From positions 202,474-266,473 of the forward strand of contig JAUVXR010000001.1 of the NCBI GenBank assembly GCA_030603495.1: a stretch of 64,000 bases of DNA. Direction: 5' to 3'. The position numbers and the translations under genes were made by a program. How positions within the stretch are numbered: the first letter of the stretch is position 1; the number at the start of each line of letters is the position of its first letter. Origin of the DNA: a bacterium. GTDB taxonomy: Bacteria > Armatimonadota > Zipacnadia > Zipacnadales > Zipacnadaceae. Shown one piece after another: positions 7,779 through 43,863 of the stretch. Under the pieces are notes generated by a model. The model was not told the DNA's origin. It did no database searches and was given only the letters and a program-made list of their open reading frames with translations.

Positions 7779-7843
7779 AGTCACCGGCCCCTCCCTCAGG
7801 GAAGTTGCTCTGAAGAATGCTCGCAAGACGGGCGAATGTTGGG

Positions 7844-9913: not shown

Positions 9914-10234
9914 ATGACCATTGGTGAGTTTCAACAGCTAATCGAGCGGACCTACTACGACAAGGACAGCAGCCGCGGCCTGGCGCCCAGTTTTATGTGG
10001 TTCATTGAGGAGGTCGGCGAGCTGGCGCAGGCTCTGCGCAGCGGCGACCGCAACGAGCTTGCTGATGAGTTCAGCGACGTACTAGCCTGGTTGGCCACGA
10101 TGGCCTCCATCAGTGGCATTGATCTGGAAGACGCTGCACAGAAGTATGCCTGCGGCTGCCCGAAATGCGGCGAGATGCCGTGCACGTGTCCCGAGCCGGG
10201 CGGACATCAGTCGGAATCATCGGCCTCGTGTTGA
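9914..10234 (+). CDS. MazG-like all-alpha NTP pyrophosphohydrolase with C-terminal Cys cluster
   Basis: FIEEVGELAQAL...DEFSDVLAWLATMA (EExxE...ExxD signature) and CPKCGEMPCTC tail. Confidence 0.85.
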   Translation: MTIGEFQQLIERTYYDKDSSRGLAPSFMWFIEEVGELAQALRSGDRNELADEFSDVLAWLATMASISGIDLEDAAQKYACGCPKCGEMPCTCPEPGGHQSESSASC

Positions 10235-13200
10235 CAAAGCGCCGTCCACTCACAGCTTGCGCACGGCGCTGCCTCTGAAGTTTCCGGCCACTGGCGACTG
10301 GATTCTAGTGCGACAAGCACAGCCAGGGCCCGGTCGAGCTGATCTGCCTGGCGGGCTAGCAGTGCTTCTTCCAGCGGCACATCTTCGAGCCCGTCCCCCC
10401 TGACATGGACCAGCACCGGCTGCCAGTCGCGCCCAGGCTCCGACTCGGCGGCGAGCGCGTGCTGGTATATGAACATCTGCAATGCATAGTCTTCTATCTC
10501 GGCCCCGCCCAGGTGCCGGTTAGTCTTAAAATCGGCAAACTGGCCCTGTTCTGCCAGGACCAGGTCCACCTTGCCACTGACAGCTACGGTTAGCTCACCA
10601 ACTCGGCGGACCAGGTGCACTGGCCGTTCCACTTCGTGGCCAGGCACGACAAGTTGCGCCCACGGACTGGCCGAGAACGCTTCGATCAGCTTGCGCAACC
10701 TGTCTAGGTCATCTGCACCAGCCTCGGCCAGCGCGGTCTCTCCCAGCTCCCGGATGTAGTCGTCATTCGGCGGGCATCCCTGGCGGTAGTATGCCGCGAC
10801 GTACTGGTGGAAGCAGGTGCCGATTGCTATCTCAGTCGTAGGACCAGTCTCTTCCAGGACCCGCTCCGGCCGCCACTTCTGGGTAATCCACCAGCGCCGC
10901 GGGCAGACCAAGACGTCCCGCAGTGCGCTGAAACTGGTATGTATAACCGCAGGCTGGTGGGGACGCTCGACTCGCGGGGGCAGCAGTGTCGGCAGAAGTG
11001 GCGCGGCCTGAGCGGGGCCTGGTCCGAGGGTGACAAGCTTAGCTAGTTCATCACCTGATTCTTCAATCGCACCGACCAGGTCCTCCCCCCAGGGAATCTG
11101 TGCATCTTTCTTTGTGCCGGCCGCGTAGGTTACACACAGTAGGTGCTTAGCCCGGGTCAGCGCGACGTACCAGAGGCGCTCCTCCTCCTGCATTTCCTCC
11201 TCGCTGCCGCTAAACAGCTTCCGGACAATGGTTTTGGCCGAGGCCTCGCCATCCACATTGAGGCTCGCCAGCCCCCACGTATCGTCGTACGCGCAGCCGG
11301 GGGAAGGATTCCTTGTCGGGTCCCAGGCCATCACAAAGACAGCGGGGAAGCCCAGGCCCTTGGCGCAGTGGATGGTCATGACCTGCACAGCGTTCTGGGC
11401 GGGCAGGTCGGGAGCAGACAGTGCCAGGCCGCTTTCCGCTTCGTACAGATCTACTGCCTGCACCAGCGAGGCCAGGTCAGCCTGGCCGCCCTCGCCGCCC
11501 AGTTCCCCGATAATCGCCTCGAAGGTCGCCTTGACCGCTACGGCCGCTGCCCGCTCAGCCGGGGTCATTCCTGATTCAGAAATGCTTCCCAGCATCATCT
11601 CGAAGACAGTGCGGGCAGGATACATCAGACTGGCCCGCCGCAGCCGCTGAATCAAGCCGTACAGCTCCCGCAGTCGGTCAATCGGTAGCTCATCACGCTC
11701 TGCCGACGCACGCCAGTCATCGCGCCCTTCCGCCAACTCCGCCACAGCGCTGATGATAGCCCTATCCTTGGGCCGCCGGCGCATCTTGGTCGCGGCTTCT
11801 GCCTCCTCGTCTGATGCGCTACCTTGACTTGGTAGGAGCGACATTCCTGTCGCGATGCCCGGTTCCCGCCCACACGGTATACTGACGAGCAGAAACAACT
11901 GGCGGTCATTGAGACAGAGCGGTGGTCGGCTCAGCAGCCGCACAAGCGAGTTGTCATCGCAGGGATCATTGACCACCCGCATCAGCGCCAGCAGGTCGCA
12001 GGCCAGGGGATGATCGAAGAAGCCTATCCCGCCCTGAGCCTGGTAGGGAATCCTACGTTCTTCCAGAGCGCTCTTGAGATAGCGGAAACCGTGGCGCTTG
12101 CGCATCAGCACGCAGATATCGCCGTATTCAAACTGCCCCTGCTCGCCAACAAGGCACTGGATCTTCTCAGCGATATAGGCGGCCTCGTGGCGGTGGGTAT
12201 GGCGCATTTCCTCACCCTCTTGGGCGGTGAACGGCGCGACCTTGATGATCGTGCCCGGCTCCGGCTTGGGACTGACCAGCGCCGGGTCATCAGGTCGAGT
12301 GCGCAGGGCCGCCCGGTTGGCCACCTCGGTGAGCCGCTCATCCATACGATAGGTTGTGCTCAACGGCCGGCAAATCTCGCTAGCGCCCACATTGTCTCCC
12401 AGTTGGAACGGCAGCAGCTTGTCGAGGTTCCCCGGCTTCGCATCCCGCCAGCCGTAGATGGACTGCTTCTGGTCACCCACGACCATCAGGCGGTGGTAGC
12501 TGCTGATCTCCCGAAGCTTGCCGTCCCCTTGCACCTGCAGCCGCATTGGCTGCGCTAGCGCCTGGAGCATCGCCATCTGGGCGGGGGAGGTGTCCTGGAA
12601 CTCGTCCACCAGGATGTATTCGAACTTGCGGCTGTAGCGCTCGCGCAAATCACTCCGCTCAGTTAACAGCCTCTGTGCCATCATTATCTGGTCGTCGAAA
12701 TCAATGCTGTCCGCCTCCGCCAACTGCTGCTGATAGATCTCGTAGGCCGCTGCTGCGGCAGCAATAATCGCGCGTTCGGTCTCTTGCGCACGCTCGAAGG
12801 ACCCCGTCACATCAGGGCGCCGTTCGTACCTTACTAGATCACGGTAGTAGAGCTTCTTGAAGTCGTTGACATGGTTCCGCTTGGCCTCGGAGACTGAGCG
12901 GAGTTGGACACCAGGCAGGCCAGCACGGAACCGTTCCCCAGCCACATTGGGAATGTCATCGGTATCTGCCAGACCCCAAGCATCTTCTGGAGATAGCATA
13001 GCCTCCCAGAATCTATCACTCAACTCCTGGGCCTGCTGGCGGAACTCGTCCGGCTCCAGCCCATAACTCTTGGCATAGCTGATGAGTCTAACCAGCACGT
13101 CACGCAATTGGTCGGGCGTGGCCAAGCCCAGCTGGGCCAGCCGGTCGGTTCGCAGGGCCGTAAGTTGAGCGTAATCGCCAGCAAAGATACCCTCAGCAAG

Positions 13201-13590
13201 GCGGTCCCGGGCAACCTGCTGGCGCATCTCGGTGAGAAGCTGCGGCTCGGGCGAGAGGCCCACCCGGTAGCTGGACTCGCGCAGCAGACGCGCGGCGAAG
13301 CTGTGGAAAGTATGCACCCATAGATCGCCGATCGCAGCAATGCCGTTGAGCCGCAGCAGCCGCTTGATGCGCATCTTCATCTCGGCGGCGGCGTTGTTGG
13401 TGAAAGTTAGCGTCAGTATGCGCTCAGGCGCGGTAACTTGCCCGCTGACGACCAGCCAGGCAAAGCGGTGGGCCAGCACGAAGGTCTTGCCCGACCCAGC
13501 ACCAGCCACGACCTTTAGAGGAATGTCAAGGCGCGGCTCCTCGATAATGGCCTTCTGTTCTTCACTTGGCTGCTGTTCGTACTGCATCAT
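10207..13590 (-). CDS. UvrD/SF1A helicase fused to PD-(D/E)xK nuclease; AdnB/AddA-like subunit
   Basis: Motif I VAGAGSGKT, Ia LTFTNNAA, II LVDEFQDT, III VGDQKQSIYGWR, V MTIHCAKGLGF, VI EERLWYVALTRA. Nuclease GKVD..ADFKT and QMFIY; Cys in CPRR plus CxxC-x5-C. ATG 13590 overlaps the upstream TGA. Confidence 0.92.
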   Translation of the reverse strand: MMQYEQQPSEEQKAIIEEPRLDIPLKVVAGAGSGKTFVLAHRFAWLVVSGQVTAPERILTLTFTNNAAAEMKMRIKRLLRLNGIAAIGDLWVHTFHSFAARLLRESSYRVGLSPEPQLLTEMRQQVARDRLAEGIFAGDYAQLTALRTDRLAQLGLATPDQLRDVLVRLISYAKSYGLEPDEFRQQAQELSDRFWEAMLSPEDAWGLADTDDIPNVAGERFRAGLPGVQLRSVSEAKRNHVNDFKKLYYRDLVRYERRPDVTGSFERAQETERAIIAAAAAAYEIYQQQLAEADSIDFDDQIMMAQRLLTERSDLRERYSRKFEYILVDEFQDTSPAQMAMLQALAQPMRLQVQGDGKLREISSYHRLMVVGDQKQSIYGWRDAKPGNLDKLLPFQLGDNVGASEICRPLSTTYRMDERLTEVANRAALRTRPDDPALVSPKPEPGTIIKVAPFTAQEGEEMRHTHRHEAAYIAEKIQCLVGEQGQFEYGDICVLMRKRHGFRYLKSALEERRIPYQAQGGIGFFDHPLACDLLALMRVVNDPCDDNSLVRLLSRPPLCLNDRQLFLLVSIPCGREPGIATGMSLLPSQGSASDEEAEAATKMRRRPKDRAIISAVAELAEGRDDWRASAERDELPIDRLRELYGLIQRLRRASLMYPARTVFEMMLGSISESGMTPAERAAAVAVKATFEAIIGELGGEGGQADLASLVQAVDLYEAESGLALSAPDLPAQNAVQVMTIHCAKGLGFPAVFVMAWDPTRNPSPGCAYDDTWGLASLNVDGEASAKTIVRKLFSGSEEEMQEEERLWYVALTRAKHLLCVTYAAGTKKDAQIPWGEDLVGAIEESGDELAKLVTLGPGPAQAAPLLPTLLPPRVERPHQPAVIHTSFSALRDVLVCPRRWWITQKWRPERVLEETGPTTEIAIGTCFHQYVAAYYRQGCPPNDDYIRELGETALAEAGADDLDRLRKLIEAFSASPWAQLVVPGHEVERPVHLVRRVGELTVAVSGKVDLVLAEQGQFADFKTNRHLGGAEIEDYALQMFIYQHALAAESEPGRDWQPVLVHVRGDGLEDVPLEEALLARQADQLDRALAVLVALESSRQWPETSEAAPCASCEWTALCQHEADDSD

Positions 13591-16500
13591 CCGCTGGGGT
13601 CGGCCTCCGTGCAGATCAGCACGTACGGGCAAGCACCAATTCGCGGGGTGCAGCCCTCCCTGGGCGGATGCCCCTCGAACCCAGGACACTGCTTGATTTC
13701 CCGCGCTTTGTCAGCCAGAAAGCCAGCGATCTGCTGTAACTCGCCGGCGCTGAAGTTCTCATCCTTAGGCTCGGCATCGTCGGCAACTAGCTCTATGCAG
13801 GAACGCTTACAGGGTGGGCTGATATCTGGCTTCAGACTCTGGAGACATACTCGCACCACCGGGCGACCGTCAATCATTGCCCAGGCCAGCGCGTAGATCG
13901 GGAGTTGATAGTCTTTGCGGAATGGCTCCTTGGCCTTGTCAGTTTCACGGTAGCAGAAGCTACGGCGCAGCGCGGCCGGTGCCTCGACTTTGCCGCTCTT
14001 GTAGTCAATCACCTCAACAGCATCACCTACGCCCACCACCTGATCAATACGACCTCGGAATCGATGAACCTGTCCACTGTCGTCAGTCAGCTCGATGTCA
14101 AACCACTGCTCGCTGGCAAGCGACTCTTCCCGGAAGAACTCAGTTCCAGCATAGACTTCCAGGGCCCGGCGGGCCCGCCCGTAGTGGACGCGGCGCGAAT
14201 AGTCAGACTGGAACTCCTGCGCGTACTGGGCGAACTTCTCGCCGAGCAGCTCAACGGCCCGTTCGGCAGTTCGCTCAGCTCCGGGGAGCTGGTTAAGCTC
14301 AGCCATAACTGCGTGAAGGACTCCACCGTAAACCATTGCCTCGGACTCCTCACCAGCCAGTCCCATGAGCTTCTCGAAGAAGAATCGCCGTGGACAGTGT
14401 AAGTAGGTATTAATGGAACTCGCGCTCAGCGGCCAGTCGGGCGCCAGCTCGGCCAGAATCGGCTCTTGGCTGATTGCTGGGCACACCAGACGGTCCTCTT
14501 CGGACTCGGTAGTATCCCCCGCCGGCAGTGGACGGCGGGCACAGGGGGTAACCGGACAACCCTCGTGGCTGGCACGCCCACCTGGCTTCTGTTCCACTAA
14601 CCCCCAAAAGACGCACTCAAAGCCCGCCCGGCCCTGTTCTTCAGCCAGTCCCAGAGCGAAGTCCTCGGGCAACGCTGAGATCAGGAACTCTGACGGACCG
14701 ACCTCGCCGCCCTCGTCCTCGACGTGGCAACTAAGAATAAGCCGGTGACGAGCGCGGCTGATAGCTGTGTGGAACAGCCGGGCCTCCTCGGCGAGCGCCT
14801 CGCTGGCCGCTTCGCCGAAGCCTGCGAACGTCAGCGTAGCGGTGGGTATACCCAGATGCGCCCGGGCCCGCTCGCGTAGTGCCCGGACCGTCTCCTGAGG
14901 CAGCAGCCGCGAGACAACCAGCGGCGCCGGGAAAAGACCCTCGCTCAGCCCAAGCAGATAGACGACGTCAAACTCCAGGCCACGCGCATCGTGGGCAATC
15001 ACGACCCGCACCCCCCTGCTGTCTCCAGGCACTGGCGGGACCGCATTCATCTCCACAACGCCACGGGTCTGCGCCAGGGACAGGCCTTTTCCCGTCACCT
15101 CCACCAAGGCCTCCTGGGTATTCGCCAAGCTGTTGAGCAAATAGAGCAACCCAGCCACGGCTGAAGGCGCATTCTCAGCCATCTGGCCCCAGAGACCGGT
15201 CTCGCGCAGCACCAGCCTTATTGCATCAACCGGCTTGTCTGCGGCGATTGCCTGAGCCTCTCGCACCACCTCCACCCAAAGATTCAAGGGGCCGACAGAG
15301 CATTCGACATCCTGAAGCAGCATGGACCGACGGGCGCGTTGGCCGTGCCGATACACTTCGGCAATGGCCAGCTCATCAGCACCAGCGAGGCTGGCCAGCC
15401 GGCACAGCGCCAGGTTGGCCCGCTCCGTTTCTTGCTCACGGACTGCCACAGGATAGGTGTCCTGCTCCTGGGCGCAGACCAGCAGATCAATGACGTCGCC
15501 AGCCAAACTGCGGGCGGCCCAGTTGCCTTCGGCCACCTCCTGTCCGGCCACGGGAATTTCGCGCAGGGCCAGATGCTCACGGGCCGCCTCCGCCTGGCGG
15601 TGATTGCGTACGATGACGGCAATCTCATCCGCCGCACAATCGCCTTCGTCGAGGAGCTCGATGATCTCGTCCCCCACGCCGACCAGCTCCTCACTGAACG
15701 TCCGATAGACCCGGACAGCGACCTGGCCAGGGCTATGACCCTCCGCGAGCGGAGCACTCAGCGCCCAATCCTGGGTAAACTGGCGGGCGACGTGGGCCAA
15801 CTCCGGGGCCATCCGACCTCGTTGATCCACCGACAACTGCGTGCGAGTTAGCTCGCGGTCGGGCAGCAGCGATTCCAACAACACTGCCGGGTCCTCCACA
15901 GCCCCGCGAAAGCGGTATATCGCCTGCGCCGGTTCGTAAGCACCGGCCATGCGCGTGCCTGGACCACACAGCGCGGCCAGTAGCTCTATCTGGAGGCAAG
16001 TCGCGTCCTGGAGGTCATCAGCGATGATCAGATCGTAGCGCTGGTGCCAGCGTGCGGCCAACCCCTGGTCTGTCAGCGCCAGCAGCGCCAGCCAGACGAT
16101 GCCGCGCAAATCGTAAACCTGCGCCTGGCGCAACCACTCCTGGTAGCGCTCGTAGATATCAGCCAGGTCGCCCAGAGCAGGCGCGTGGGACAAGCCCGGG
16201 ATGACCTTCTCCCGGAAGGTCTTTGTGTCTATCTTGCAGCGCTTGAGCTCCGCAATGAAGTCGGCGACATCATCACGGAAGCGAGGGCTACGGCGCACCT
16301 GCTCGGCCTGGTAGTAGCGTGCGCCTGACGTTGTCTCCCGAATGACCTCGCCGACCAGCAGCCGCTCGGGCAGCGGGCCGATCACACCACGGCCTGGGTG
16401 GCCCACGTTCTCCTGCAGAATCCGCTGGGCCAAATCCTCGTACGTTTCAACGACCGGAATTACTGTTCGGCCCGCACTGACACTGCGCTGAGCGAAATAG

Positions 16501-16664
16501 TCCCTCTGGCGCTGCTGGGCCGCTCGGTCCAGCGCGAGCCATAGGACCCGCGCCGGCGCAAGGCCACCTGTCTCGATAGCCTCCGCCACAATCCGCGCCA
16601 GGTACGTGGTCTTACCCGAGCCGGGGCCCGCTTTGATTAGTTCAGTCGTCGGCTCAACAGCCAT
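13587..16664 (-). CDS. Degenerate UvrD-like helicase fused to PD-(D/E)xK nuclease; AdnA/AddB-like subunit
   Basis: AGPGSGKT intact but motif II is IADDLQD. AIYRFRGA, HDARGLEF, EEARLFHTAISRA. Nuclease GRID..IDYKSG and QLPIY; Cys in CPRR plus a C-terminal C-x6-C-x5-C. Confidence 0.88.
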   Translation of the reverse strand: MAVEPTTELIKAGPGSGKTTYLARIVAEAIETGGLAPARVLWLALDRAAQQRQRDYFAQRSVSAGRTVIPVVETYEDLAQRILQENVGHPGRGVIGPLPERLLVGEVIRETTSGARYYQAEQVRRSPRFRDDVADFIAELKRCKIDTKTFREKVIPGLSHAPALGDLADIYERYQEWLRQAQVYDLRGIVWLALLALTDQGLAARWHQRYDLIIADDLQDATCLQIELLAALCGPGTRMAGAYEPAQAIYRFRGAVEDPAVLLESLLPDRELTRTQLSVDQRGRMAPELAHVARQFTQDWALSAPLAEGHSPGQVAVRVYRTFSEELVGVGDEIIELLDEGDCAADEIAVIVRNHRQAEAAREHLALREIPVAGQEVAEGNWAARSLAGDVIDLLVCAQEQDTYPVAVREQETERANLALCRLASLAGADELAIAEVYRHGQRARRSMLLQDVECSVGPLNLWVEVVREAQAIAADKPVDAIRLVLRETGLWGQMAENAPSAVAGLLYLLNSLANTQEALVEVTGKGLSLAQTRGVVEMNAVPPVPGDSRGVRVVIAHDARGLEFDVVYLLGLSEGLFPAPLVVSRLLPQETVRALRERARAHLGIPTATLTFAGFGEAASEALAEEARLFHTAISRARHRLILSCHVEDEGGEVGPSEFLISALPEDFALGLAEEQGRAGFECVFWGLVEQKPGGRASHEGCPVTPCARRPLPAGDTTESEEDRLVCPAISQEPILAELAPDWPLSASSINTYLHCPRRFFFEKLMGLAGEESEAMVYGGVLHAVMAELNQLPGAERTAERAVELLGEKFAQYAQEFQSDYSRRVHYGRARRALEVYAGTEFFREESLASEQWFDIELTDDSGQVHRFRGRIDQVVGVGDAVEVIDYKSGKVEAPAALRRSFCYRETDKAKEPFRKDYQLPIYALAWAMIDGRPVVRVCLQSLKPDISPPCKRSCIELVADDAEPKDENFSAGELQQIAGFLADKAREIKQCPGFEGHPPREGCTPRIGACPYVLICTEADPSG

Positions 16665-16722
16665 ATTGGCGTGCCGTCACCTGCTATCAGTCGGTTGCTG
16701 ATTACCACGACCGTCGCTGCGT

Positions 16723-16760
16723 GCCGGCTTCACTGCGTTCAACCGGCCCCTCCGAACTAC
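16723..16760 (-). repeat. Truncated REP-like repeat downstream of the RAYT gene
   Basis: Minus strand GTAGTTCGGAGGGGCCGGTTGAACGCAGTGAAGCCGGC. Shares the 24-nt GCCGG-loop-CCGGC hairpin with the copies at 17236 and 17345. The TAG of GTAG is the RAYT stop codon. Confidence 0.8.
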
Positions 16761-17221
16761 GGCCAGCTTACCAGTACTGACCACGGCCAATCTTCCCAAC
16801 GTTGGCATAGACCCTCACGCACAGGATTGTCCAAGACATACTGTATCATAGCCCGCACGTTTTCCTCCTCACGCGCATGCCTATCCCAATAACTACGCTG
16901 CCAGGCGAAATGAGCATGTCCCAAACGATGAGCTTGGCGGCTGATTTCACTTTTCAACGTGGCAATAAACGGTTGAAAACCGCTATCTCTACTATCCATC
17001 GAGCACACAACGTGCATATGGTCTGGCATCACACAATACGCATGCAAGGAGAGCCTGAAACGAACGGCCCGCTCGTGCAGCACTCTTACGACCATTGGCG
17101 CCAGGTCAGGAACAAGTAAGCTCTGCCCCTTTTTCGCGGCAATAGTGACAAAGACTGGTGAGCGATCAGTCCTGTAAACTGCCTCAGGTAGTCTAAATGG
17201 ATGTCTTCGGTTAGGTAGCAT
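16757..17221 (-). mobile_element. REP-associated tyrosine transposase (RAYT/TnpA_REP, Y1 HUH family)
   Basis: N-terminal RRHPFRL, VFVTI, HUH motif AYCVMPDHMH, WQRSYWDR, catalytic-Tyr helix YVLDNPVREGL and WPWS. Flanked by palindromic repeats. Probable start ATG 17221 (ORF track 17254). Confidence 0.88.
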
Positions 17222-17235
17222 GCACATGGCACAGA

Positions 17236-17324
17236 CCGGCTTCACTACGTTCAACCGGCGCCTCCCGGAGGGGCCTGTCGAGCAGACCGAGTAGCACGAG
17301 GTCTGCGAGGCTGGCCCGCCCTAC
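17236..17324 (-). repeat. Composite REP/BIME-like unit 1 (three hairpins, GTAG foot)
   Basis: Minus strand GTAGGGCGGGCC... with stem GCAGACC/GGTCTGC, then a CCCTCC-GGAGG hairpin, then the GCCGG-TTGAACGTAGTGAAG-CCGG hairpin. Confidence 0.8.
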
Positions 17325-17344
17325 CACAAGCCCTAGAGCACGGG

Positions 17345-17420
17345 CCGGCTTCACTGCGTTCAACCGGCCCCTCCCGGAGGGGTCTGTCGAGTGGGCCGAC
17401 TATCACGAGGCCCGCCCTAC
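17345..17420 (-). repeat. Composite REP/BIME-like unit 2 (three hairpins, GTAG foot)
   Basis: Minus strand GTAG-GGCGGGCC-TCGTGATAGTC-GGCCCAC, then CCCCTCCGGGAGGGG, then GCCGGTTGAACGCAGTGAAGCCGGC. Direct repeat of unit 1. Confidence 0.8.
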
Positions 17421-17534: not shown

Positions 17535-18908
17535 ATGAACAGTTCGGACATAAGTATAAAGCAAATCGAGGTGGCCTTCGAGCCGTTCATCGCCCGCACG
17601 CCGCTCAAGTTTGGTGCCGTTGTTATGGACGCGCTACACTTCTGCCGGGTCAAAGCGACTGTCGAGAACGAGGATGGGCAGGTCGCGGACGGTTGGGGCG
17701 GGATATTCGTGGCTGATTTCTGGGCCTGGCCTACCTTTGAACTCACCCACGAGCAGAAGCAGGCAGCCATGACGGATGTGATACAGCGCTATGCCGACAT
17801 GGTGACTGCATACCCCGGGCCGGCACATCCGATTGATATCTTCCTGGACCTGGAAGAAGACCTGCGCGCGATGAATGAACAAGTCTGCGCGGAGCACGAG
17901 CTGATGCCCGCACAACCGTTCCTGGGCGGGCTGGTCTGTGCCTCGCCGATAGACGCGGCGCTTCACGACGCCTTCGGCAATGTTAATGGCATTGACTGCT
18001 ACGACGGCTACGGCCCGGAGTTTATGAGCGACCTGAGCAAGTACCTTGGTCCTGAGTTCCGGGGCAGGTATATCCCGGACTACATCCGCAGCGAGTACAT
18101 GCCCGAGGTGCCGATCTTCCACCTGGTCGGCGGACTGGACAAGCTCACCGAAGCGGAGAAGGATGACTCCGATCCCGACGACGGCAAGCCGGTCAGCCTG
18201 GATGAGTGGATCCGCGCTGAGGGCATGTACTGCCTGAAGGTGAAGCTGCGCGGTAACGACCTCGACTGGGACGTAGACCGTACGCTGGCCGTGTACAGGA
18301 TCGGGCGCGAAGAGTTGCCCAAGCTTGATATCGAAGAGATGCACTTGACCGCCGACACCAACGAGCAGTGCGAAACCCCGGAATACATCATCGAGATGCT
18401 CCACAGGATAAGGGAGCAATCGGAAGATTGCTTCGAGCGGATTCTGTACATCGAGCAGCCCACCGAGCGCGAGCTGACCGCGCACCGCCACGACATGCGC
18501 GAGTTGTCCCAGCTCAAGCCGGTGATCGTGGACGAGAGCCTCACCGACCTGGAGAGTTTCGAGCTGGCGATGGAGCTAGGCTGGTCGGGCGTAGCGCTCA
18601 AGACCTGCAAAGGCCACTCGTCCAATATGATCTTCGCCGCGAAAGCCCGGGAGTTAGGCATCCCCTATGCGCTCCAGGACCTGACCAACCCCAGTCTGTC
18701 GCTGATCCACTCGGTGGGCATGGGCGCACGCCTGTACACGATAATGGGCGTGGAGGCCAACAGCCGGCAGTTCTTCCCCGATGCCACCACCGAAGCCGAG
18801 CAGCGGGTACATTCCGACATCTTCAACGTCCGCCGAGGCGTGGCGGATACCGCCAGCCTGCAGGGCACCGGCCTGGGCTACCAGATGGACAAGTTGCTGG
18901 GCTCCTAG
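17535..18908 (+). CDS. Mandelate racemase/muconate lactonizing enzyme (enolase superfamily) protein
   Basis: KxK motif LKVKLRG, metal ligands ADTNE, YIEQP and VDES, ALKTCKG. Confidence 0.8.
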   Translation: MNSSDISIKQIEVAFEPFIARTPLKFGAVVMDALHFCRVKATVENEDGQVADGWGGIFVADFWAWPTFELTHEQKQAAMTDVIQRYADMVTAYPGPAHPIDIFLDLEEDLRAMNEQVCAEHELMPAQPFLGGLVCASPIDAALHDAFGNVNGIDCYDGYGPEFMSDLSKYLGPEFRGRYIPDYIRSEYMPEVPIFHLVGGLDKLTEAEKDDSDPDDGKPVSLDEWIRAEGMYCLKVKLRGNDLDWDVDRTLAVYRIGREELPKLDIEEMHLTADTNEQCETPEYIIEMLHRIREQSEDCFERILYIEQPTERELTAHRHDMRELSQLKPVIVDESLTDLESFELAMELGWSGVALKTCKGHSSNMIFAAKARELGIPYALQDLTNPSLSLIHSVGMGARLYTIMGVEANSRQFFPDATTEAEQRVHSDIFNVRRGVADTASLQGTGLGYQMDKLLGS

Positions 18909-43787: not shown

Positions 43788-43863
43788 GCGCGTGCAGCGC
43801 AGGCAGGTGGAACCGGTCCCTCCAAACCTGTTTGGCATGAATACACCATCTGCCGGTAATTGG

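Follow-up and report, generated by a model that had tools for sequence, protein, structure and literature searches.

The locus analysed here is in all likelihood a REPtron, i.e. a RAYT gene, coding for a domesticated transposase of single-stranded DNA, embedded in its cognate REPs. It lies in a 64-kb stretch of Armatimonadota DNA, hereafter called the window. The RAYT gene is immediately flanked by its REPs, five of which were matched by a covariance model (CM), and the same was found at eight homologous loci. Elements of this kind (REPtrons) are already known; what is new is the member, a GGAG-footed REP/RAYT family in Armatimonadota, by which the REP/RAYT pattern is extended to a poorly studied phylum. 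No description of its REP was found in the searchable literature, and a search with the REP core as a string returned unrelated primers only. Loci and contigs outside the window are designated by L numbers and metagenome runs by X numbers.

Table 1. Features of the REPtron and adjoining genes (positions in the window)
Feature	Position	Strand	Details
REP type 1, C1	17342..17374	-	CM 63.6 bits, E=2.9e-13; fold z -2.6
REP type 1, C2 (GGAGGCGCC...CCGGTC)	17234..17265	-	CM 52.5 bits, E=1.4e-10
REP type 1, C3	16722..16753	-	CM 59.5 bits, E=2.8e-12
REP type 2 (long), A2	17267..17317	+	CM 43.6 bits, E=2e-8; fold z=-2.95
REP type 2, A1	17376..17417	+	CM 16.6 bits, E=0.066; folds poorly, z=+0.3
Tail-to-tail linker C1-A2, 24 nt	17318..17341	.	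includes second GTAGGGC; homologous to longer L003 linker
RAYT (TnpA_REP-type HUH/Y1 nuclease) gene	16757..17227	-	156 aa from ATG
AdnA/AddA-like UvrD-type helicase + PD-(D/E)XK nuclease gene	13587..16664	-	Pfam UvrD-helicase, UvrD_C, PDDEXK_1
Enolase-superfamily (MR_MLE_C) gene	17535..18908	+	Pfam MR_MLE_C 1.2e-10

Judged by its sequence, the protein is a RAYT and not an IS200 transposase, as the preliminary description of this DNA had proposed. It reached 101 bits (cut-off 80) with the NCBIfam model REP_Tyr_transpos (NF047646) and only 24.8 bits (cut-off 55) with the IS200 equivalog (NF033573); with Pfam Y1_Tnp the score was 32.3 bits (cut-off 23). In the PDB comparison, the best solved relative was E. 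coli TnpA_REP (4ER8, E=3.9e-10), and IS608/ISDra2-type TnpAs were found at about 0.03. The HUH motif, H70-M-H72, is aligned on the HMH of 4ER8, and the tyrosine Y130 (in IQYVLDNPV) on E. coli Y115. The W-Q...D-R..R stretch (AWQRSYWDRHAR) corresponds to E. coli W94, Q95 and R104, with the changes E100D and H101R. The roles of E. coli residues W94, Q95, E100, H101 and R104 were taken from PMC6006769; substitutions of the E100D/H101R type were reported by Quentin et al. for the REP-associated subclasses 2.5 and 2.7 (PMC6006769), and they suggest one of these two subclasses for the protein. The residues reading GTAG in E. coli are kept in the Armatimonadota RAYT although its REPs have a GGAG foot. 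Gene callers begin the gene instead at a TTG that lies within REP C2 (17254), for a protein of 165 aa.

The AdnA-like gene is located downstream of the RAYT gene in the same orientation. It is followed by a second long ORF (10207-13689, - strand), and the two form an AdnAB/AddAB-like pair. The enolase-superfamily gene is divergent from the RAYT gene, makes the left border of the REPtron and is syntenic in L001 and L003. Inside the AdnB/AddB-like ORF, an exact canonical GTAG-type REP (GTAGGAGCGACATTCCTGTCGCGA) was seen at 11832-11855 (+ strand). The AdnB/AddB-like protein has a 22-aa in-frame insertion (TGMSLLPSQGSASDEEAEAATK) that is missing from the L003 orthologue. The GTAG REP family of 11832-11855 also adjoins GGAG REPs in L002, L006, L009 and L017; a RAYT belonging to it was not found in the window.

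Relatives were collected by scanning species-representative genomes with the core of one hairpin of the repeats (hairpin C, see below), which gave five loci. These belong to three MAGs of Armatimonadota, of which two are Ca. Zipacnadia and one is 'Armatimonadia'. Three more true members, L006, L009 and L017, came from a scan of metagenomes. The other metagenome 20-mer matches (L007/8/13/14, L010/11, L012, L015 and L016) were unrelated or due to chance and were discarded. On two AT-rich contigs (L010 1325-1345 and L011 1624-1644), GAGGGGTTGACCGGTTGAACGNAGTGAAGCCGGTTTC follows a perfect hairpin and stands beside TTATCCACA, which is DnaA-box-like; these sites are probably a chance 20-mer match, though the extra GAGGGG is odd. 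RAYT homologues with 42-78% identity were found at L003, L018, L019, L020, L021, L023, L028 and L031, all of them with flanking GGAG-footed hairpins. The repeats had been called cognate REP-like elements, and the GGAG-stem core shared by these eight RAYT loci bears this out. L003 is the syntenic locus: its RAYT is 78% identical, with one module upstream and a single REP downstream. At L018, hairpin C is found upstream of the RAYT gene and an inverted copy with an additional internal stem downstream. The flanks of L023 and L028 are arrays or inverted pairs of GGAGGGGCCGG-loop-CCGGCCC. Tandem direct GGAG-hairpin arrays with periods of about 81 nt and about 135 nt were observed with the RAYT homologues of 42-43% identity at L023-L027 (about 1256-1603 and 2120-2384) and L021; each flank of the L023 gene terminates in one inverted copy.

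In the window, two upstream direct modules (85% identical over 78 nt, start-to-start distance 109 nt) and a downstream partial copy (34 nt, 16720-16753) accompany the intact HUH/Y1 gene, as first described. The stems GCAGACC/GGTCTGC, GGGCC/GGCCC, CCCCTCC/GGAGGGG and GCCGG/CCGGC were also found as stated there. The 25-mer GCCGGTTGAACGCAGTGAAGCCGGC occurs three times at two mismatches or fewer, compared with none expected from 100 shuffles. Occurrences of GGAGGGGCC at 7786 and 8537, of which one falls in a start region and the other in a coding region, were attributed to chance and set aside. The preliminary description had read each module as a GTAG foot followed by three independent hairpins, A, B and C. 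From the comparison of loci, the unit is instead one hairpin REP and not a three-hairpin composite, because the flanks of the relatives show split feet, sides that are reverse complements and lone hairpins.

Each REP is made of a 5'-GGAG foot, a stem GGGCC(G/T)G/C(C/T)GGCCC and an invariant tandem G.A/A.G internal loop. The 7-bp GC stem is GGGCCGG/CCGGCCC, with a T.T mismatch in type 2. Inward from the stem come a T.G pair, a Y-R pair, the G.A/A.G 2x2 loop, an R-Y pair and the tip, which is a C-G pair with a GNA triloop in type 1 and a variable apical stem-loop in type 2. In C1, the GGAG foot and GGGCCGG/CCGGCCC are followed by T.G, T-A, G.A, A.G, A-T, C-G and a GCA triloop.

The CM was trained on short REPs only, the long forms being outside the training set. 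It found exactly five copies in the window, three on the - strand and two on the + strand. No further REP was found in the 64 kb, the next-best CM match having E=0.29. This match (43797-43827, - strand, GTTTGGAGGGACCGGTT, 13.9 bits) resembles the 5' half of a REP and may be a decayed REP remnant or a chance match. Matches on the + and - strands abut at 17266 and 17375, which is the inverted-pair arrangement used to recognize a BIME or REPIN. In the sense of the RAYT gene, the layout is <A1 C1> linker <A2 C2> RAYT C3>. Each module can thus be assigned as a type-2 REP (+ strand) head to head with a type-1 REP (- strand). A2 is inverted with respect to C2, from which it is separated head to head by a 1-nt spacer. 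It folds into a single long hairpin that contains the 2x2 GA loop, and the former hairpin A is its apical stem, CAGACC/GGTCTG. A1 stands head to head with C1 and is a deletion variant without the 3' part (…CGAGGCTGG), the gap being visible in the alignment. Hairpin A of module 1 is partly another register of the same sequence, because the 13-nt length difference between the modules is a deletion in module 1. C2 ends 6 nt before the RAYT ATG and holds the alternative TTG start. C3 stands alone in the space that separates the RAYT stop from the adnA-like start, with an orthologous copy in L003 and in the RAYT-less L001.

The short-REP CM also recovered all long inverted forms in the relatives. 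Inverted doublets occur in L003, L004, L005, L009, L019, L020 and L028; tail-to-tail pairs and single copies occur too (L005, L009 and L001). In L020, the 'A side' is simply the reverse complement of the 'C side'. The distance between CCCCTCC and GGAGGGG is 10 nt in L004, 29 nt in L019 and about 65 nt in L020. Hairpin B is therefore not a hairpin of its own: as read from these loci, it is two feet with the first stem bases side by side.

These data bear directly on the new REP class that had been suggested, in which the mobile unit would be a co-oriented tandem composite of GTAG and hairpins A, B and C, with the third copy as a cleavage/rejoining product. The direct repetition of two modules at 85% identity speaks for it, as do L019 and L020, where a complete A..C module is directly repeated to the left and right of the RAYT gene, and the A-C doublet present in one piece inside uppP in L004. 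The head-to-head doublet may well be the unit that moves. However, GTAG is not conserved, the A half is an inverted REP (CM E=2e-8), hairpin B is split in L004, L019 and L020, and tail-to-tail pairs and single copies exist in L005, L009 and L001. As for the claim that all copies are co-oriented, unlike REPINs, the hairpin A half was found on the opposite strand, so that the modules are inverted head-to-head doublets, i.e. pairs of the two versions of one repeat and not tandem three-hairpin elements. The third copy is a plain single REP, which L003 and the RAYT-less L001 have in the same position. GTAG had also been said to supply the RAYT stop codon: the GTAG at 16759-16756 does contain the TAG, but this is a local coincidence, the stop codon being TAA in L003. 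The composite is thus largely refuted already in its foot, its orientation and its third copy, and as a whole we regard it as very unlikely.

The foot was examined on each hairpin's own strand. GGAG is the invariant tetranucleotide in all parsed copies. L003, L004, L019 and L020 lack the GTAG that precedes the window modules on their 5' side; relatives have GGTG, ATGA, ATAG or ACGA there, and the GTAG foot was consequently abandoned. Canonical REPs have a 5' GT[AG]G located 0-2 nt from the stem and a basal stem of at least 7 paired nt (PMC6006769, Methods). The REPs described here have such a basal stem, followed by a loop or bulge and a second stem, and do not carry the GT[AG]G foot. A loose CGT(A/T) (CGTW) motif was noticed 0-3 nt 5' of GGAG in about 60% of the copies (L009, L018, L019, L020, L023, L028 and L031); it might mark a cleavage site or be an extended foot.

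The folded structure is supported by comparison of copies. The G.A/A.G loop is invariant in the 23 parsed copies. The first inner pair is Watson-Crick in 23 of 23 (T-A in type 1, C-G in type 2) and the second (A-T or G-C) in 21 of 23. In the short-REP alignment, 94.9% of the cells are paired and double changes occur at three pairs; this was equalled by none of 500 shuffles, and controls with the alignment slid reached 26-51%. In type 2, the apical stem is 95% paired within the window group, with two covarying pairs, and its sequences are unrelated among the window group, L019 and the two L020 copies. The earlier proposal that the structure of hairpin A, rather than its sequence, is conserved is confirmed in this respect. 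When copies were folded singly in the REP orientation, 10 of 13 (A2 included) gave the foot, the stem, the 2x2 loop and the apical stem, and z was -2 or lower in 7 of the 13. Whole modules folded no better than shuffled sequences (z -0.6 to +1.2), so the structural support is comparative and not energetic. On the opposite strand, each G.A pair reads as a C.T mismatch; each REP copy therefore has one well-folding strand, which fits single-strand recognition.

A coding origin with a period of three was considered for the loop differences between L018 and the window, which fall on every third base, the L004 copy being in frame; it was rejected. In two half-sites, which lie 9 nt apart and pair with one another, TGAA is replaced by CGAG (T-A to C-G, A-T to G-C) around G.A/A.G, and the reading frame of the upstream module parts differs from copy to copy. 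A coding cause was dropped because the changed half-sites pair with each other and the frames differ among copies.

REP copies were also found away from any RAYT gene, in related MAGs and metagenomes, as the preliminary description had proposed to check. Intergenic RAYT-free copies are present in L002, L005, L006, L009 and L017. In L004, a head-to-head GGAG-REP doublet (2643-2738, in ORF 2018-2968, - strand) is inserted in frame within the uppP/BacA gene (Pfam BacA 244 bits), and the encoded UppP has about 65 residues in place of the 18-residue loop of E. coli UppP (5OON). On metagenome contigs (runs X1-X3), type-1 REPs have many different flanks. The GGAG REP family looks small and low-copy, unlike classical REPs, since there are only one or two exact REP cores per related MAG and none outside the REPtron in the 64 kb.

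Comparison of the relatives documents loss of the RAYT gene by deletion between its own direct REPs. An empty site in a relative, which had been suggested as a check, is provided by L001, where the same intergenic region is present without the RAYT gene and one REP is kept about 60 nt upstream of the adnA-like start. DNA identity is 94-95% between L001 and L003 and 87-88% between the window and each of them; as L001 and L003 are closer to each other than the window is to either, the RAYT gene is probably ancestral at this site and was probably lost in L001. The single REP of L001 aligns to both flanking REPs of L003, the right one and the degenerate left one, and this is the mark of a deletion that removed about 610 bp between direct repeats. 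Two further RAYT-less alleles were found on metagenome contigs from related populations: in one, 16754 is joined to 17267 (X4) and in the other, 16753 to 17339 (X2). The endpoints of these junctions are inside direct type-1 REPs.

The same alleles are relevant to the possibility that the locus is an IS200/IS605-type insertion sequence, whose hairpins would be the left and right ends used by TnpA and which would transpose as a whole. RAYT-less alleles exist, RAYT homologues occur in at least four different gene contexts within the clade, and co-oriented type-1 hairpins (C2 and C3) stand directly on either side of the gene, all of which would suit such an element. Against this, a REP remains at the empty sites, whose endpoints fall within direct repeats, which is what recombination predicts. 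The protein is under the cut-off of the IS200 equivalog, no tnpB was found at the RAYT locus, and the ends are identical and not distinct LE and RE. The gene is single-copy in the 64-kb window, and it occupies the same locus in genomes whose DNA identity is only 87%, an indication of vertical descent. The probability that we give to an insertion sequence is accordingly very small.

It was also considered whether the repeats are primarily RNA elements, acting on the adnAB-like and RAYT transcripts as stabilizers, attenuators or terminators and maintained by host selection, the link with RAYT being incidental. C3 is kept about 60 nt upstream of the adnA-like start even without the RAYT gene (L001), C2 abuts the RAYT start codon, and effects of REPs at the level of RNA are known (PMC3733652). 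However, the repeats are found in both orientations at unrelated intergenic and intragenic sites and at eight RAYT loci. No relevant Rfam match was obtained for them. The scan found no promoter-like site, and no terminator-like signal in the REPtron interval 16722-17417; its sole terminator-like match (17599-17616) is inside the enolase-like gene and within chance expectation. Folding of one strand (G.A versus C.T) fits recognition of single-stranded DNA at least as well as it fits RNA. A role primarily as RNA elements is thus hardly to be expected.

For the REPtron, a mechanism can be proposed by analogy with E. coli TnpA_REP and the biology of IS200. The RAYT would bind the folded REP on single-stranded DNA and would read the foot and the mismatched internal loop. 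It would then cleave and rejoin DNA, by which REPs or doublets would spread to new sites. The direct type-1 copies also serve as substrates for recombination events that delete the RAYT gene, and RAYT-less alleles were found. As C2 overlaps the RAYT translation start, it may damp RAYT expression. A further and more doubtful proposal, possible but not favoured, is that a RAYT clade so far confined to Armatimonadota switched its guide/foot from GT[AG]G to GGAG, reads a tandem sheared G.A hairpin with a GNA triloop or a freely varying apical stem, and is still active. Present activity is suggested by the in-frame REP insertion in uppP (L004) and by the lineage-specific arrangements of doublets. 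If this proposal were true, the family would be a compact natural example of how an HUH/Y1 enzyme reads DNA shape versus sequence. The covariation-backed model of a non-GTAG REP (GGAG foot, tandem G.A loop and variable apical stem) could guide binding and cleavage work on substrate recognition by TnpA_REP.

Among known systems, TIRtrons/TIRYTs and the atypical REPs of TnpA_Y1 subclasses 2.6 and 3 (PMC3733652; PMC6006769) are similar in having RAYT-like genes flanked by repeats without the GT[AG]G tag, in families of only moderate abundance. In contrast to them, the repeats described here are compact foot-plus-hairpin REPs of canonical layout and not long TIRs, the TIR motif GGGGWSAS is not matched, and the protein keeps the W-Q...R residues typical of REP-associated subclasses. 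With IS200/IS605 elements (IS608, ISDra2), the locus shares the HUH/Y1 fold, a presumed single-strand chemistry and hairpins on one strand on both sides of the gene. It differs from them in a protein that falls short of the IS200 model and in flanking hairpins that are identical copies of a repeat found also without the gene; nothing indicates that the unit transposes as a whole.

In Pseudomonas REPINs (Bertels & Rainey 2011; PMC3116915, PMC3337134), likewise, two inverted REPs make a larger hairpin as the likely mobile unit, and they are tied to a vertically inherited single-copy RAYT. Here, however, the halves belong to different subtypes and are unequal in length, pairs may be head to head or tail to tail, single REPs exist as well, and abundance is low. 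This low abundance is closer to that of RAYT Groups 1 and 4, for which 12-14 occurrences of the flanking 16-mer were reported (PMC5581495).

In the REPtron of E. coli K-12, tnpA_REP/yafM is flanked by Y and Z2 REPs in inverted pairs/BIMEs (Ton-Hoang 2012 and Messing 2012, as summarised in PMC6006769 and PMC3733652). The Armatimonadota locus differs from it by its foot (GGAG versus GTAG), by the tandem G.A of the internal loop, by the variable apical stem of type-2 REPs, by a copy number that is apparently a handful and not hundreds, and by its host, a member of Armatimonadota (class Ca. Zipacnadia or a relative), with a protein match of only E=3.9e-10. The two are alike in having one HUH/Y1 gene, for a protein of about 160 aa, two REP subtypes that alternate in orientation as doublets around it, a 4-nt foot 5' of an imperfect hairpin, and loss of the REPtron by deletion in some strains. 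They also share a conserved 2x2 mismatch in the stem, AA/GC in E. coli and GA/AG here. Changing the AA/GC mismatch to paired residues abolishes cleavage in E. coli (summarised in PMC3733652), and by this parallel we infer a role of the GA/AG loop in recognition.
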